Positions 33,624 to 59,420 of a stretch of DNA of 64,000 nt are shown here, piece after piece. The stretch's first letter is position 1. Each line of letters begins with the position of its first letter. The notes beneath the pieces are model-generated. The model was not told the origin of the DNA, did not search any database, and saw only the letters and a program-made list of their open reading frames with translations. Made by a program: the position numbers and the translations under genes. The stretch comes from an uncultured delta proteobacterium (GTDB lineage: Bacteria; Desulfobacterota; Binatia; Binatales; Binataceae): assembly GCA_963811865.1 (NCBI GenBank), contig CAWESZ010000001.1:66335-130334 (forward strand). The letters are read 5' to 3'.

Positions 33624-34550
33624 ATGAAATTCTCGCTCATCCTCGCGACCGTCGGCCGGACGGCTCAACCGGCCTGCTTCCTCGCCGCGCTGGATCGGCA
33701 GATCTATCGCGATTTCGAGCTGATCGTGGTCGATCAGAATCCGGATGATCGACTCGGTCCCATCCTCGAACCATACGCCGGCAAGTTGGAGGTGAGACGA
33801 CTCCGCTCGGCGCCCGGCATTTCGCGCGCGCGCAACGTTGGGCTTGCGGCGGCCAGCGGACAGGTGGTGGGATTCCCGGATGACGATTGCTGGTATCGCG
33901 CGGAATTGCTGGAAGACCTGAACGCAGTCTTCGCGGCGCGGGCGGAACTGGCAGTGGTGTGCGGCCGGATGGTGAATCCGGCCGGACTGCCATGGCGGAG
34001 GATGCCGTCCCGGAGTGCGAGCCTGAACCGGTACAATCTTTTCCGCCGCACGACCTCGGCGGCGATCTTCATCCGCCGGGCGATGTGCGAATCAGTCGGT
34101 CCCTTCGACGAGACGTTCGGCCTCGGCGCAGGCACACCCTGGACGGGCAGCGAGGAACAGGACTACCTGATCCGCGCGCTCAAGCTGGGCGCCGGCGCCG
34201 AGTATTGCACCGACATCGCAATCCATCACAAGGAACCGCTCGCGGCGACCGATCCGGCGACGCTGGCGCGCGAGTACTCCGCGTCGCGCGCGTTCGGACG
34301 GGTGCTCCGCAAGAACCACTATCCTCGCTGGTTCATCGCATATCTTCTGGGTCTCTCCGTTGCGGGTGCGTTGGTCTCCTTGGCGCGCGGCGATCGCGAG
34401 CGAATGCGGCGCTATCGGAGCGGCTTCGAAGCCAAACTGCGGGGATGGCGCGATCGCGGCAATCTCTCGGCGGACCCGTTTGATATGCTCGACGACACGC
34501 CTGATACGCCGGCGCCGGAGCATCGAACGACGCGTGATTCGGTCCCGTGA
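33624..34550 (+). CDS. GT2 family glycosyltransferase
   Basis: FSLILATVGR, ELIVVDQN, ARNVGL, FPDDDCWY, GPFDETFG, EEQDY. Confidence 0.9.
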   Translation: MKFSLILATVGRTAQPACFLAALDRQIYRDFELIVVDQNPDDRLGPILEPYAGKLEVRRLRSAPGISRARNVGLAAASGQVVGFPDDDCWYRAELLEDLNAVFAARAELAVVCGRMVNPAGLPWRRMPSRSASLNRYNLFRRTTSAAIFIRRAMCESVGPFDETFGLGAGTPWTGSEEQDYLIRALKLGAGAEYCTDIAIHHKEPLAATDPATLAREYSASRAFGRVLRKNHYPRWFIAYLLGLSVAGALVSLARGDRERMRRYRSGFEAKLRGWRDRGNLSADPFDMLDDTPDTPAPEHRTTRDSVP

Positions 34551-34826
34551 TGGTGCGCGTCTCGGTTATCATTCCAGTTTACAATGGAGCGGCGACGCCG
34601 GGCTCATTCTTGTCGACCCCGCCGGCGCCGCGCAGAGCTGCATCAGGTTGTTGCGATTGAGTCCGCTGCATCTTTTGGGTTGGCGCTATGCGCGAGCATT
34701 GTTCCGCCCGCGTGCCAGGAAGTTGCCGGCCAGAATTTTCCGGCCGGCGATCACGCCGCGCCGCGGCAAGATCACCGGCACGTGACGCGCGCGCTCGGAG
34801 TTTCCACTAGCCCGGGTTGCATCGAG

Positions 34827-36005
34827 ATGAAGCGCATTTTGATCGTCGGATCCAGGCTCGAACCGCCGGGCGGAGGGGAAGGCCTGCTGGCGTGGATCAT
34901 CGAGGCGCTAAAGCACGACTATCGGCTGAGCGTGTTGACGTGGACTCCAGCCGATCTCGAGGGATTGAACCGGTTTTTTGGGACCGAGCTTTGCGCTTCG
35001 GACGCCGAATTCATGATTATGAACCCGCTGATCCAGGCCATCGCGCAGAAATCGCCGACCACGATGGCTCGGCTCAAGGATCATTATCTAGGCAAGCGCA
35101 GCCGCCGGATCGCAGACCGGTTCGATGCCGTTCTAACCGGCGACAACGAGGGTGACGTCGGCTCACACGGTATCCAATACATCCACTTTCCAAGAATCCT
35201 ACGGAACGGGGCCGCACCTGAGGGTCACTGGTGGTCGGCGCCCGCGATCCGGGCGTATACCGCGATGAGCGACCGCCTGACCGGGGTCTCGTGGGAACGG
35301 ATGCGCAGGAACCTCACGCTGGTGAACTCGGACTTCACGGGACGAAGGGTCCGGGAATTGCACGGCATCGAGACCCTAACGGTATATCCGCCGGCGATCG
35401 GCGAATTTGCGGAGGTGCCTTGGGAGCGGCGCAAGGATGGATTCGTTTGCATCGGGCGCATCGTACCCTACAAGCGGGTCGAGCTGATGATCGAGATTCT
35501 GTCCGCGGTCCGGGCGGGCGGGCCACAAGTGCATCTCCACGTGGTCGGAAAGGCAGAATGGCCCGGCTACGTCGCCTCGATCCGCCGCCTGGTTCAGGCC
35601 AACGCGTCCTGGGTCCATCTGCACGAAGAAATATCGCGCCCGGAGCTTGTCGAGTTGATTGCGAGTCATCGCTACGGCATCCACGCGATGCTTGACGAGC
35701 CCTTCGGCATGGCGGTCGCCGACCTCGTCAGCGCCGGATGCATCACCTTCGTTCCGAACCGCGGCGGGCAGGTCGAGATTGTCGCCAACGACGAGCGTCT
35801 GATTTACTCCTCGCGCGAGGACGCGGTGAACAAGATTCTGCAAGCGATTCGCGAACCGGACTATCAGGCGAGCCTGCGCAATCATATCGCGTCGCGCCGC
35901 AGCTTGTTCGGGGCCGAGCGGTTCGTGAGCCGGATTCGCGAAGTGGTCGGCGACTATCTCCGCGAGCGGCCGGCGGGGGGCGCGGCCCGGGTTGAGTCGA
36001 GATGA
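34827..36005 (+). CDS. GT4 glycosyltransferase, ALG11-like (copy 1)
   Basis: GGGE, QYIHFP, VNSDFT, VYPP, IGRIVPYK, YGIHAMLDEPFGMAVAD...NRGG. Confidence 0.85.
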   Translation: MKRILIVGSRLEPPGGGEGLLAWIIEALKHDYRLSVLTWTPADLEGLNRFFGTELCASDAEFMIMNPLIQAIAQKSPTTMARLKDHYLGKRSRRIADRFDAVLTGDNEGDVGSHGIQYIHFPRILRNGAAPEGHWWSAPAIRAYTAMSDRLTGVSWERMRRNLTLVNSDFTGRRVRELHGIETLTVYPPAIGEFAEVPWERRKDGFVCIGRIVPYKRVELMIEILSAVRAGGPQVHLHVVGKAEWPGYVASIRRLVQANASWVHLHEEISRPELVELIASHRYGIHAMLDEPFGMAVADLVSAGCITFVPNRGGQVEIVANDERLIYSSREDAVNKILQAIREPDYQASLRNHIASRRSLFGAERFVSRIREVVGDYLRERPAGGAARVESR

Positions 36006-57681: not shown

Positions 57682-57720
57682 TGACGATTCTTCATTACTG
57701 ACGATTCGTCAGCCAGTCAA
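57682..57720 (-). promoter_or_regulatory. Promoter TTGACT-N17-TAATGA with tandem TetR-type operators
   Basis: Perfect palindrome CTGACGA-T-TCGTCAG (57698-57712) and imperfect copy TGACGA-T-TCTTCA (57682-57694). Confidence 0.75.
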
Positions 57721-57797
57721 GCGGCGGCGGAACGCGCGACGACTGGCGCCGCCTGCCGCGAGCAGTTCGGCCGATCTTCAGATCGTCGATGCGGCGA

Positions 57798-59420
57798 CTA
57801 TTTCACGACGATATTGTAGGCGGTCGTGCCGTCGAGATAGCGGACGGTGGCGGCCGGCGGCGCCGGAGGGAGATGGCTGCCGTCGAAGACGAAAATCCCG
57901 TGAGGCAGGCCGCCGTAAACCCATTCCGGGGGGATAAACCAATAGCGGCCGAAGTTTGCGACCCGCGGGGACAGCCCCGATTCAGTTTTGACCGGCAGGC
58001 GCTGGAACAAGTCGGGCGGGTAAGCCTCGAAGAACAGCACCAGAATATAGCCCTGATTGGTGGGTGTGATCACGACCGGGTCTTCGTAATTGCCCAGCTC
58101 GCCGATCTGCTGCACCACCTGGTCCATCCCATACCAATAGTAACGCTCAGCTACGAGTGGATAGTCGCGGAAGTACACTCGGGCGAACCGGGCGCCATCC
58201 ACTATCAGAGCGGTGAAGACAATTGCCGCCAGGCCCAGCCGAACCGGGGCGAAGCGGGCGCCGGCTTCCAGCAGGGCTGCGAAACCGGCGGCGGAGAGCA
58301 GGATCCATGGCGCAAAAGCCAGCACGTCGCGCTGCGAATGAGCTGCCGGCATCATCATCGCCGCGGGCAGGGACGCCATTACGAGCCATCCGGCGAGCAG
58401 CGCAAGGTGGCGCGGCTGCGTGACGAGCAGTGCGATCAGTCCGATCACGATCAGAAAGGCCTGCTCCCGCAGCAACTGACCAAAGCCGGGCGGATGCACC
58501 GGCCAGCCCTCGCCGACCGTGCCGCGCAGGAAGAGGAAAGCGGGACCGAAATAGCTCGCGAAGTTGGCGCCGACCAAACCAAGTTGACCCAGCCGGGACG
58601 CCCCGGTGTTGAACACCGACTCGGTCAGGAAACGGGCCTGCATCGCCGCGGTGTGCCGCAGGAGCATCACGCCCTGTGGCAGCGCGATCAGAAACGCCAA
58701 AGCGATCGCGCCCGCCGCCGCGCGCCGCGAGGACACGAGATCGCGCCAGTACAGGAGGCCGAGGTACAGGATCATCAACGGCACGAAAGCCTTGGTGATC
58801 GCATACGCGTAAAGCGCAAGCCCAAAGCCTGCGCCGCTCAGCAGCAGCCAGTAGTTCCGGCGCCGTCGTACCCAGAGGAAGAAGGCAGCCATCGCAAGAT
58901 CGACCGTGGCAGAAGCGGTGATCGCCTCGTGCGCGAAGCGGCTGAAGGGCAGATGCCACGGCGAGAACGCGCCCAACACCATCGCGAGTGCCGCCCCGGG
59001 CCAGCCCCAGAGCAGGCCGGCGAGAGTCGCGATCGCGGCCAGGTCCACGATACCCCACAGCGCGGCGTCCAGCCTGATGCTGGCGGGCGTGAGTCCCAGC
59101 GCCGCGACAAAAGGCACGAGCGAGTAGTCGAACAACGGCATCCGGTAGTCGTTGAAGGCCTGAATTGCCAGCGGCATGAAGTTGCCGTGCTGGTCGCGCC
59201 CGGTGGTTAAAATACTGTACGCATCGTAGCCGTTGCAGGCCTCGTCCTGGTTGAGCCCGGGCGGCACCTGATCGAGCCGCATCACGCGCAGCCCGATAGC
59301 CGCCGCCATCGCGACGATCAGAATCACGACGCTCAGCCGGTTGACGTATGTCGCAAAAGCGGGCTGCGCCGGAGTGTCCGGTTGGGCCGGTTGAGCGCCG
59401 GCGGGAGTCGGGAGTTCCAT
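57798..59420 (-). CDS. ArnT/PMT-family (GT83/GT39) GT-C glycosyltransferase
   Basis: LR...LDQVPPGLNQDEACNGYDAYSILTTGRD.HG, SPWHL.FSR, multi-TM. Confidence 0.85.
   Translation of the reverse strand: MELPTPAGAQPAQPDTPAQPAFATYVNRLSVVILIVAMAAAIGLRVMRLDQVPPGLNQDEACNGYDAYSILTTGRDQHGNFMPLAIQAFNDYRMPLFDYSLVPFVAALGLTPASIRLDAALWGIVDLAAIATLAGLLWGWPGAALAMVLGAFSPWHLPFSRFAHEAITASATVDLAMAAFFLWVRRRRNYWLLLSGAGFGLALYAYAITKAFVPLMILYLGLLYWRDLVSSRRAAAGAIALAFLIALPQGVMLLRHTAAMQARFLTESVFNTGASRLGQLGLVGANFASYFGPAFLFLRGTVGEGWPVHPPGFGQLLREQAFLIVIGLIALLVTQPRHLALLAGWLVMASLPAAMMMPAAHSQRDVLAFAPWILLSAAGFAALLEAGARFAPVRLGLAAIVFTALIVDGARFARVYFRDYPLVAERYYWYGMDQVVQQIGELGNYEDPVVITPTNQGYILVLFFEAYPPDLFQRLPVKTESGLSPRVANFGRYWFIPPEWVYGGLPHGIFVFDGSHLPPAPPAATVRYLDGTTAYNIVVK

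Follow-up and report, generated by a model that had tools for sequence, protein, structure and literature searches.

Does a bacterial chromosome carry a pathway for protein N-glycosylation that is laid out like the ALG pathway of eukaryotes? The question is raised by a stretch of 64,000 nucleotides from an uncultured delta proteobacterium of the Binataceae (contig CAWESZ010000001.1, positions 66,335 to 130,334; the whole stretch is called the window here), in which a set of glycosyltransferase (GT) genes lies next to a gene for an oligosaccharyltransferase (OST) of the STT3 family. The likeliest explanation of the locus is an accessory, OST-dependent system for protein N-glycosylation, with a lipid-linked oligosaccharide that would be made by steps like those of the cytosolic half of the eukaryotic ALG pathway. 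We consider it fairly probable that this is a native bacterial pathway, in which a mannose glycan with a chitobiose core would be built on a polyprenol, flipped and N-linked to proteins. The conserved core of the locus is located at positions 46955-55809 of the window and consists of five genes:

52852..55809, minus strand: STT3/AglB/PglB-family oligosaccharyltransferase, 985 aa (P0001), with Pfam domains STT3 and STT3-PglB_core
51520..52812, plus strand: MurG paralogue (GT28), PF03033 90.8 bits and PF04101 96.4 bits
50035..51309, minus strand: ALG1-like GT-B glycosyltransferase, Glyco_trans_4_4 and Glyco_trans_1_4
48802..50016, minus strand: ALG2-like GT4, Glycos_transf_1 108 bits and Glyco_transf_4 63 bits
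46955..48736, minus strand: MsbA/PglK-type ABC exporter, a half-transporter of 593 aa, ABC_membrane and ABC_tran

Genes were picked by third-position GC content, and families were assigned from Pfam and NCBIfam scans. The window is part of contig C1 in a genome of 4.9 Mb and 13 contigs that is rated 75% complete, and the nearest public relatives are metagenome-assembled genomes (MAGs) titled Candidatus Binataceae, Binatus or Binatia. All eleven genes listed in the original prediction, which had been made from the letters of the window, are present at or near the positions it gave, and eight of its eleven labels are backed by the evidence given below, namely those of the OST, the MurG paralogue, the ALG1-like and ALG2-like genes, the PglK-like ABC transporter, two GT-C proteins and a GT54-like remnant; the ALG11 label given to three GT4 genes is not.

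ALG- and STT3-type names are unusual in bacteria, and the first suspicion might thus be an artefact, with DNA from a eukaryote or an archaeon mixed in or a contig joined wrongly. The OST protein is recorded on a contig of 455 kb, and the GC content is 0.60-0.68 in every 2-kb bin of the window, the same in the cluster region as in the remainder, as the original prediction had said of a match to the host; contamination is therefore excluded. The flanking genes are ordinary bacterial ones (Tad pilus, DoxX, TetR), the region is covered by short-read contigs from several soil studies, and the same arrangement is found in dozens of MAGs from independent projects, which leaves an artefact of any such kind with a negligible probability. 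The sequencing runs listed as matching the region are soil-metagenome contigs with small shares, and no RNA run is listed among them.

One genome per species was scanned for a related OST, giving 79 loci, and the stop-to-stop open reading frames (ORFs) of these were searched with the window proteins. In 65 of the 79 the OST has a flank of at least 5 kb on one side or both, and among these it scores 370 bits or more against the window OST in 45 and is weaker in 20. Beside the 45 strong OSTs there is a MurG paralogue in 27 loci, an ALG1-like gene in 26, an ALG2-like gene in 18, an ABC exporter in 19, a member of the GT4 family described below in 13, in single copy, and a WecA-type gene in 20. 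The 20 weak loci, from Woesearchaeota, Nanoarchaeota, Methanosarcinales, Omnitrophota, Planctomycetales and two fragmentary Binataceae, hold two MurG genes, one each of the ALG1-like, ALG2-like, ABC and GT4 genes, and no WecA-type gene. The module of OST, MurG paralogue, ALG1-like gene, ALG2-like gene, ABC exporter and one GT4 recurs in many independent MAGs, and the clustering from which the original prediction started is kept in relatives (MurG paralogue or ALG1-like gene in 30 of the 45). In 37 loci, selected for having a core gene beside the OST, the neighbours without a match were clustered, and a recurrent family of about 355 aa, present in 16 of the 37 and often directly upstream of the OST, belongs to PF00953 (WecA/MraY/ALG7; 147.8 and 106 bits), with WecA as its best NCBIfam model.

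The OST tree contains 76 rows, four loci with an OST ORF shorter than 700 aa being excluded, and one branch with an SH-aLRT support of 100 splits 23 archaeal, Omnitrophota and Planctomycetales rows from 53 bacterial rows. None of the 23 is linked to the module, and 33 of the 53 are, early branches included.

The OST matches Pfam STT3 with 86 bits (cut-off 24.5) and STT3-PglB_core with 34.9 bits (cut-off 23), and is the only STT3 match over the cut-off in the whole genome. The motifs AWWDYGYWIKY, GDYDSYHW, GSDDNVWN and IVAE are seen, and in an alignment of the window protein with 13 homologues of 39-74% identity residues D140, D259, V415, E417, W622, D623 and G625 are invariant and D261 and Y624 nearly so. 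The motifs of OSTs acting on asparagine (N-OSTs) we take to include acidic residues in external loops 1 and 2 and a Glu in loop 5 (TIXE/SVSE). The stretch that follows WWDYG is highly divergent, too much so for the DK or MI motif that sub-types the family to be recognized in it. All solved OSTs are distant from the alignment profile: Pyrococcus AglB is matched with 1e-7, and PglB and yeast STT3, about equally far from the window sequence, with 6e-5 and 8e-5. The AlphaFold2 (AF2) model of the protein has a pLDDT of 76.1, and the first 19 Foldseek matches are N-OSTs without exception (PglB, STT3A/B, AglB), the best being PglB with an E value of 6e-13 and a TM-score of 0.60-0.62 on the target. 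The OST looks functional because its Pfam matches are over the cut-off, its motifs are invariant and the best folds for its model are PglB, STT3 and AglB.

A glycan made by the cluster might also go to an acceptor that is not a protein, for instance a lipid or a polymer of the envelope, and the STT3 homologue would then be the ligase of that product or be unrelated to its neighbours. There is no known acceptor protein, the MurG paralogue and the ALG1-like gene are present in one relative (G027) with no OST match, and at least 15 of the 45 strong OSTs lie in loci without the module, all of which fit such a use; yet WWDYG and the acidic loop motifs that mark N-OSTs do not vary, every one of the best fold matches is a protein N-OST, and the OST-linked state runs throughout the bacterial OST clade with its early branches. 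In addition, no polymerase, chain-length or O-antigen-ligase family turned up in the family scans of 33.6-59.4 kb, where Wzy, Wzz, WaaL and Wzx were all missing. We regard this alternative as improbable, and N-linkage to protein stays the preferred reading of the OST.

Two TadG-like pilus paralogues, located just upstream of the cluster at 28777-30111 and 31312-32595 (both minus strand), contain 17 and 19 N-X-S/T sequons. Shuffling each sequence within its own composition gave means of 7.1 and 8.7, and the observed count was reached in 0 and 1 of 5000 shuffles respectively. The sequons sit in GN-x-S/T repeats and are possibly a mere beta-helix motif; the two proteins are candidate acceptors for the OST on this sequon content. 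Some genomes have two OST copies, and duplication of the OST is common in the bacterial clade. In L017/L029 two OSTs, 74 and 43% identical to that of the window, lie 80 kb apart on one contig, with the module beside the first only, and a tandem pair is found at L043:7101-12763.

The MurG paralogue has both GT28 domains in a single chain, its PDB matches are MurG only, and with 245.8 bits it is about 4 bits under the cut-off of the murG model (250.25). A better MurG (281.6 bits) is encoded on contig C2 about 3 kb from mraY, and the two are 31% identical; judged by sequence, the window copy is not the housekeeping MurG of peptidoglycan synthesis, in line with the label of paralogue that it had been given. 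A tree was built from 24 copies linked to the cluster and 18 housekeeping copies from the same class, excluding all ORFs shorter than 330 aa and those linked ORFs that reach 480 aa, and one branch with an SH-aLRT support of 100 splits the two sets. A second full MurG is found in four of 24 relatives (G005, G011, G027 and G032), which are exactly those with an ALG1-like gene; it adjoins that gene in three of the four, and in G005 it adjoins an OST piece on another contig. The MurG matches of G009 are two halves of one gene at contig ends.

The MurG family adds a beta-1,4-linked GlcNAc to a sugar linked to polyprenyl diphosphate (PP), and the ALG1 family requires GlcNAc2-PP-lipid. Since the MurG paralogue is the only enzyme of the module that might make this lipid, it is placed at the chitobiose step, and the constant pairing with the ALG1-like gene is our reason for proposing GlcNAc-PP-lipid as its acceptor. 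The proposed function is thus that of a second-GlcNAc transferase giving chitobiose-PP-lipid, the step of ALG13/14 or Agl24. Translation probably starts downstream of the GTG at 51520. The glycine-rich loop reads GGTAGH as against the motif GGxGGH (PMC8993221), with the His kept and one Gly changed to Ala.

G027, rated 100% complete, has a MurG paralogue and an ALG1-like gene about 750 bp apart (C44:255340-258417), and the OST query has no match in it. Judged from this genome, the GlcNAc2-Man module may have a use in which no OST takes part.

Among 120 listed homologues of the ALG1-like protein every name given by JGI is 'beta-1,4-mannosyltransferase', and for the ALG2-like protein every such name is 'alpha-1,3/alpha-1,6-mannosyltransferase'; the NCBI names are generic in both cases. 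We take the two JGI names to be the KEGG names of ALG1 and ALG2. By these names, which agree with the labels first put on the two genes, the proposed activities are those of a beta-1,4-mannosyltransferase acting on GlcNAc2-PP-lipid and of an alpha-1,3/alpha-1,6-mannosyltransferase. The ALG1-like protein probably starts about 10-26 codons downstream of the ORF start, as 94-98% of the query is covered by homologues that are 398-414 aa long. The signatures of ALG2 are a G-I-G-G-A-E-R loop and an EX7E motif, E-H-F-G-I-V-P-L-E (bioRxiv 10.1101/2025.10.15.682550). The window protein has the loop as GVGGAER, in accord with its label, and the second motif as EHFGYGPLE, with both Glu present and the Val replaced by Gly. 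In 120 homologues the loop is G[ILVM]GGAER in 102, and EHFGxVPxE with Val is found in at least 98 and with Gly in 12.

Homologues of this kind have been studied as enzymes by Xu et al. 2025 (bioRxiv 10.1101/2025.10.15.682550, as are all statements in this paragraph), who list 204 bacterial ALG1 homologues and report no reliable archaeal ones, with BLAST E values of 6e-22 to 1e-104 between human ALG1 and the bacterial proteins. ALG1 homologues from a gammaproteobacterium, Polyangia and Binatia complement yeast alg1 and convert GlcNAc2-PP-phytanyl to Man1GlcNAc2, a product that is extended by human ALG2. Of four bacterial ALG2 homologues, two rescue yeast alg2, and bacterial ALG2 homologues are reported to have a dual alpha-1,3/alpha-1,6 activity in vitro, with Man3GlcNAc2 named as the product. 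A change of the Val in the second ALG2 motif to Ala lowers the activity and does not abolish it.

Further sugars might be added by three tandem GT4 genes, which are found at the other end of the region:

34584..36005, plus strand: GT4a, first tandem GT4 paralogue, Glycos_transf_1
36002..37201, plus strand: GT4b, second tandem GT4 paralogue, Glycos_transf_1 57.7 bits
37198..38404, plus strand: GT4c, third tandem GT4 paralogue, found by tblastn with GT4b and lying in two frames in the window

The three are 57-67% identical to one another and about 29% to the ALG2-like protein. GT4a is 67% identical to GT4b from residue 82 on, the representative of the GT4a cluster has 392 aa, and the real start of GT4a is probably near 34827, which gives the 392-aa form. 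The original prediction had called them ALG11-like. The genes are real, but the ALG11_N domain (PF15924) is found in none of the three at E<=0.01 and nowhere in the genome at E<=1, the JGI name of a GT4b cluster member is the generic 'glycosyltransferase involved in cell wall biosynthesis', and the Atlas neighbours of GT4b are generic bacterial and archaeal GT4 proteins, so that the ALG11 label is not supported.

The ABC exporter scores 277.7 bits with the MsbA model and 241.8 bits with the PglK model, both under their cut-offs (1000 for PglK), and its two domains agree with the PglK-like label. By analogy it is proposed as the flippase for the lipid-linked oligosaccharide. In close relatives, with an OST 79% identical to that of the window, a homologue of GT4a/b/c follows the ABC gene after about 0.7-1.8 kb, and the 8.5 kb between the two in the window are therefore an insertion.

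The proposed pathway would start with the transfer of GlcNAc phosphate to polyprenyl phosphate by a transferase of the WecA/ALG7 type, of which there is a copy on contig C5 and, in many relatives, one adjacent to the OST. WecA-type enzymes make HexNAc-PP-polyprenol. The MurG paralogue would then add the second GlcNAc to give chitobiose-PP-lipid, the ALG1-like enzyme a beta-1,4-mannose, the ALG2-like enzyme alpha-mannoses, and one to three of the GT4 paralogues further sugars. The ABC exporter might flip the glycolipid to the periplasmic face, as PglK and MsbA suggest by analogy, and the STT3 homologue would move the glycan to Asn residues of exported proteins. The data show the identities of the genes, the intact catalytic motifs, the conserved co-location and co-occurrence and the separate MurG lineage, and for homologues the activities of ALG1 and ALG2 are on record; the sugars, their order, the acceptor proteins and the lipid carrier are what we infer.

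The other genes of the region and its surroundings are the following:

33591..34550, plus strand: GT2 glycosyltransferase, Glycos_transf_2 65 bits, peripheral and not conserved with the core
38465..39343, plus strand: 292-aa protein with no assigned family, Methyltransf_24 at E 0.053 (a weak lead)
39566-40915 and 41180-42520, minus strand: two paralogues of about 447 aa, Methyltransf_12 22.2 and 21.4 bits (cut-off 30)
42.5-44.5 kb: stretch without clear genes, with the GT54 remnant inside
43593..43920, minus strand: GT54 (MGAT4-like) remnant, weak PF04666 match of 16.6 bits
about 44500-46711, plus strand: GT-C-fold membrane glycosyltransferase, no Pfam model, recognized by AF2 and Foldseek
55911..56951, minus strand: TetR-family regulator, TetR_N 60.7 bits at residues 175-221
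56525..57628, minus strand: AurF-like di-iron protein (weak), AurF 24.8 bits (cut-off 29.6)
57798..59420, minus strand: PMT_2-like GT-C membrane glycosyltransferase (P0003), PMT_2 24.7 bits (cut-off 26.1)
60278..61201, plus strand: UbiA-family decaprenyl-phosphate phosphoribosyltransferase, outside the finding, NF008977 261.4 bits (cut-off 234) and UbiA Pfam 95 bits

Near the related OSTs there are no homologues of the GT2, the 292-aa protein, the 447-aa pair, the 44.5-kb GT-C protein, the TetR regulator, the AurF-like protein or the PMT_2-like protein, apart from weak matches of 27-40 bits to the GT2 in five loci; a different PMT_2 family is present in three of the 37 selected loci. The TetR domain is in the C-terminal half of its ORF, and the true start is therefore downstream. 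The AurF-like gene is probably unrelated to the cluster.

The GT-C protein at 44.5 kb has 736 aa in an intact copy that is 99% identical (P0370) and belongs to a family with 5868 representatives at E<=1e-3. Its AF2 model (pLDDT 80.9) matches yeast STT3 best in Foldseek (7e-9), followed by AftD, AglB, DPY19 and ArnT, and the protein lacks WWDYG. The PMT_2-like protein matches the Agl23 model with 23.5 bits, far under the cut-off. A fold by model in the first case and a PMT_2 match just under the cut-off in the second sustain the description of both as GT-C proteins. A periplasmic extension by them, with the two genes as ALG3/9/12, was considered and is rejected as unsupported: neither is conserved with the cluster, and one of them neighbours the gene for decaprenyl-phosphate phosphoribosyltransferase, which suggests that the PMT_2-like GT-C protein belongs elsewhere. 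A genome scan with PF03901 (ALG9/12 type, GT22) gave nothing over the cut-off. At 57798-61201 the PMT_2-like gene, an alpha/beta hydrolase gene and the phosphoribosyltransferase gene stand together, and they probably form a separate polyprenyl-phospho-pentose system that recalls the mycobacterial route to the arabinan donor.

Donor synthesis of the Dpm1/GtrB type for the GT-C enzymes, by the GT2 at 33591, was also rejected. There is no polyprenyl-phosphate sugar synthase among its PDB matches, and its PDB relatives are chains named 'Glycosyl transferase', GalT1 and heparosan/chondroitin synthases.

The PF04666 match of the GT54 remnant (cut-off 51.5) covers 43798-43914 and model positions 28-67. 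By tblastn the remnant is 54-78% identical, in two frames, to residues 2-106 of an intact paralogue on contig C8, and by this comparison it is the N-terminal third of a broken gene, so the original label of a GT54-like remnant holds. No GT54 gene is found in any related OST locus. The intact GT54 (MGAT4-like) gene on C8 scores 111.3 bits against the same cut-off; at L109:11505-12473 and 12577-13392 (both minus strand) GT54 is located beside a GT32-like gene (Gly_transf_sug) and a sulfatase gene, about 10 kb from a PglC-type Bac_transf gene, and there may be a further locus for a glycan here that employs GT families of the eukaryotic type.

The 292-aa protein has no Pfam or NCBIfam family and is not found in the related loci; its Atlas neighbours are 'hypothetical', with 12% Methyltransf_21 in one cluster. 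The two paralogues of about 447 aa have a weak N-terminal signal for an S-adenosylmethionine-dependent methyltransferase and cluster with each other only. They have the highest GC content of the region (0.68, bin 40-42 kb) and are part of the 8.5-kb insertion by which the cluster is split. Nothing useful came from a Pfam scan relaxed to E values of up to 5, which covered the GT-C proteins and the small ORFs in 40.9-44.5 kb. Further off, the 731-aa protein encoded at 8703-10898 (plus strand) has a long Pro/Thr/Ser-rich linker with TPTPTPS repeats, of a type typical for heavily O-glycosylated or extended cell-surface proteins.

Several points weigh against the proposed pathway. No glycan, glycoprotein or transcript has been observed, and the chemistry therefore stays inferred. 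The ALG1 and ALG2 labels are based on names given to homologues and, for ALG2, on motifs. The ALG2-like protein has Gly at a Val position that is relevant for activity, and two of five bacterial ALG1 and two of four bacterial ALG2 homologues fail to complement yeast (bioRxiv 10.1101/2025.10.15.682550).

The last two points also favour a product of another kind, in which N-glycosylation would be OST-dependent and the glycan not eukaryote-like, being instead a lineage-specific structure made with other donors or acceptors, as in the archaeal Agl systems. Where the GT proteins match curated NCBIfam models, they stay far below the cut-off, and a PDB sequence search with the four GT4 and ALG-like proteins gave no ALG1, ALG2 or ALG11 entry to anchor the assignment, only generic GT4 proteins (WbaZ-1, GlgA, PimA, PglA-type) or no match; the three extra GT4 genes, the GT2 and the possible methyltransferases would imply a lineage-specific decoration. 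Against such a product, the tight pairing of the MurG-type and ALG1-like genes fits the one acceptor that ALG1 needs, the ALG2 signature motifs are conserved family-wide, and a Binatia ALG1 homologue acts on GlcNAc2-PP-lipid (bioRxiv 10.1101/2025.10.15.682550). We give it a modest chance and keep the chitobiose-mannose glycan as the preferred product. The idea of a chitobiose-core N-glycosylation as originally put forward is thus upheld for the core, by comparative genomics and the preprint, and not for ALG11, the GT-C extension or the completeness of the pathway.

The state of the genes in this genome is a further matter. No initiating transferase is found in the window, and the only PF00953 gene of the genome that is not mraY is located on C5, in a genome 75% complete. 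The ORF beside it is P-loop-like and was read by eye, without a family scan, as a polysaccharide-type kinase. A scan with TIGR01479 (GDP-mannose pyrophosphorylase/isomerase) gave sub-cut-off nucleotidyl-transferase matches only. The reading frame is also broken twice in the region, once in GT4c and once in the 44.5-kb GT-C gene, and one of the breaks is contradicted by reads. The first, placed at 38028-38030 by tblastn with GT4b, depends on a base at 38029 that is absent from contigs of three soil runs from three studies, so that it is peculiar to this assembly and the GT4c gene is probably whole. The second is near 44687-44706, judged from the intact copy only. Since the essential mraY (G000:C2:49424-49982) is frame-broken as well, which points to assembly indels and not to decay, the single-base changes at 38029, at 44687-44706 and in mraY are probably assembly errors rather than pseudogenes.

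If the locus were decaying or inactive here, a pseudogenised remnant, the two frame changes, the GT54 fragment, the insert of about 8.5 kb between the ABC and GT4 genes that close relatives lack and the want of a nearby initiating transferase would all be accounted for. We think this improbable, about as much as transfer to a non-protein acceptor, as all six core genes are full-length open frames, contigs of three other runs do not have the break at 38029, the GT-C gene is known in an intact copy 99% identical to it and the assembly breaks mraY too. An active locus is preferred also on these grounds.

Of the 40 relatives that were compared, seven have the OST, six an ALG1-like gene (E<=1e-30) and five both. 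The OST was not found in four genomes of the same genus (75-90% complete) and is present in only four of 24 of the same family, and the system is therefore accessory and patchy. The labels of the MAGs are unreliable: the OSTs of L023 and L025 are separated by a path length below 0.001 on the tree and their MAGs are labelled Binataceae and Bryobacteraceae, so at least one bin label is wrong, and the apparent spread of the module to other phyla, in MAGs labelled Verrucomicrobiia, Stellaceae and Myxococcota, needs care.

The proposed pathway shares with the eukaryotic ALG pathway the order of HexNAc-1-P transferase (in relatives), GT28, ALG1-like, ALG2-like and further GT4 enzymes, flipping and STT3. 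It differs in a fused MurG-type GT28 as against the split Alg13/Alg14 pair, in an ABC exporter as candidate flippase as against Rft1, in the absence of a detected ALG11_N domain and of a GT22 over the cut-off in the genome, and in its single-subunit OST, its clustered genes and a carrier that is presumably of the undecaprenol type. With the pgl system of C. jejuni it has in common a gene cluster, cytoplasmic GT4 enzymes, an ABC flippase of the MsbA/PglK type and a single-subunit OST with PglB as the best fold, but the PglB model is matched with 18.9 bits only (cut-off 1300) and the PglK model is likewise far under its cut-off. There are no PglC-type Bac_transf or di-N-acetylbacillosamine genes here (Bac_transf, aminotransferase and acetyltransferase families are missing from the family scans of 33.6-59.4 kb), relatives carry PF00953 genes, and the window cluster has a MurG paralogue and ALG1-like and ALG2-like genes instead.

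In the crenarchaeal Agl24/AglB system a fused MurG-like GT28 has likewise been proposed for the chitobiose core, followed by a single-subunit OST (PMC8993221), and the closest solved relative of the window OST by sequence is Pyrococcus AglB. Agl24 is about 16% identical to MurG (PMC8993221), whereas the window enzyme is a close MurG relative with 246 bits, and ALG1 homologues are reported as not found in archaea (bioRxiv 10.1101/2025.10.15.682550). The same logical parts have been brought together in engineered E. coli, where native WecA, yeast Alg13/14, Alg1 and Alg2 and C. jejuni PglB give proteins with Man3GlcNAc2 (Valderrama-Rincon 2012, as described in bioRxiv 10.1101/118224). The window cluster resembles a natural counterpart of this pathway on a bacterial polyprenol, differing in that its gene set is natural and includes its own OST, an ABC exporter and extra GT4 genes.

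The homologues of Xu et al. 2025 very probably belong to the same protein families as the window genes, one Binatia ALG1 included. Their study deals with single enzymes and phylogeny; its main text does not contain 'gene cluster' or 'synten', and the OST appears there as background only. What the window adds is a linkage: the bacterial ALG1 and ALG2 families occur together with an OST and an ABC exporter, and with a MurG paralogue and a WecA-type gene. The literature searched, from which most subscription journals are missing, yielded Xu et al. 2025, Lombard 2016 and Meyer et al. 2022 as the relevant papers and no description of the cluster.

The origin of ALG1 has been given as unknown and possibly a eukaryotic innovation (Lombard 2016, PMC4973528), and OST-dependent N-glycosylation in bacteria as seemingly restricted to Delta- and Epsilonproteobacteria (Meyer et al. 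2022, PMC8993221). The route to eukaryote-like glycans in E. coli now borrows yeast enzymes and C. jejuni PglB (bioRxiv 10.1101/118224), and such glycoengineering would profit directly from natural genes for Man(n)GlcNAc2 on a bacterial carrier that come as a compact set and include an OST. With the cluster, the bacterial ancestry of ALG1 and ALG2 becomes a question that can be tested on a whole, clonable pathway, and the active homologues gain a genomic context. A bolder view, to which we attach a rather small probability, is that clusters of this kind are where bacterial ALG1 and ALG2 natively belong, encode a complete pathway giving an Asn-linked Man3GlcNAc2 core, and were the bacterial source of the eukaryotic mannosylating module; if so, that module would have been taken from a cluster-bearing bacterium, and not be assembled piecemeal or of archaeal origin. 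If the proposed pathway is right, OST-dependent N-glycosylation in bacteria would extend beyond the pgl type of the delta- and epsilonproteobacteria.

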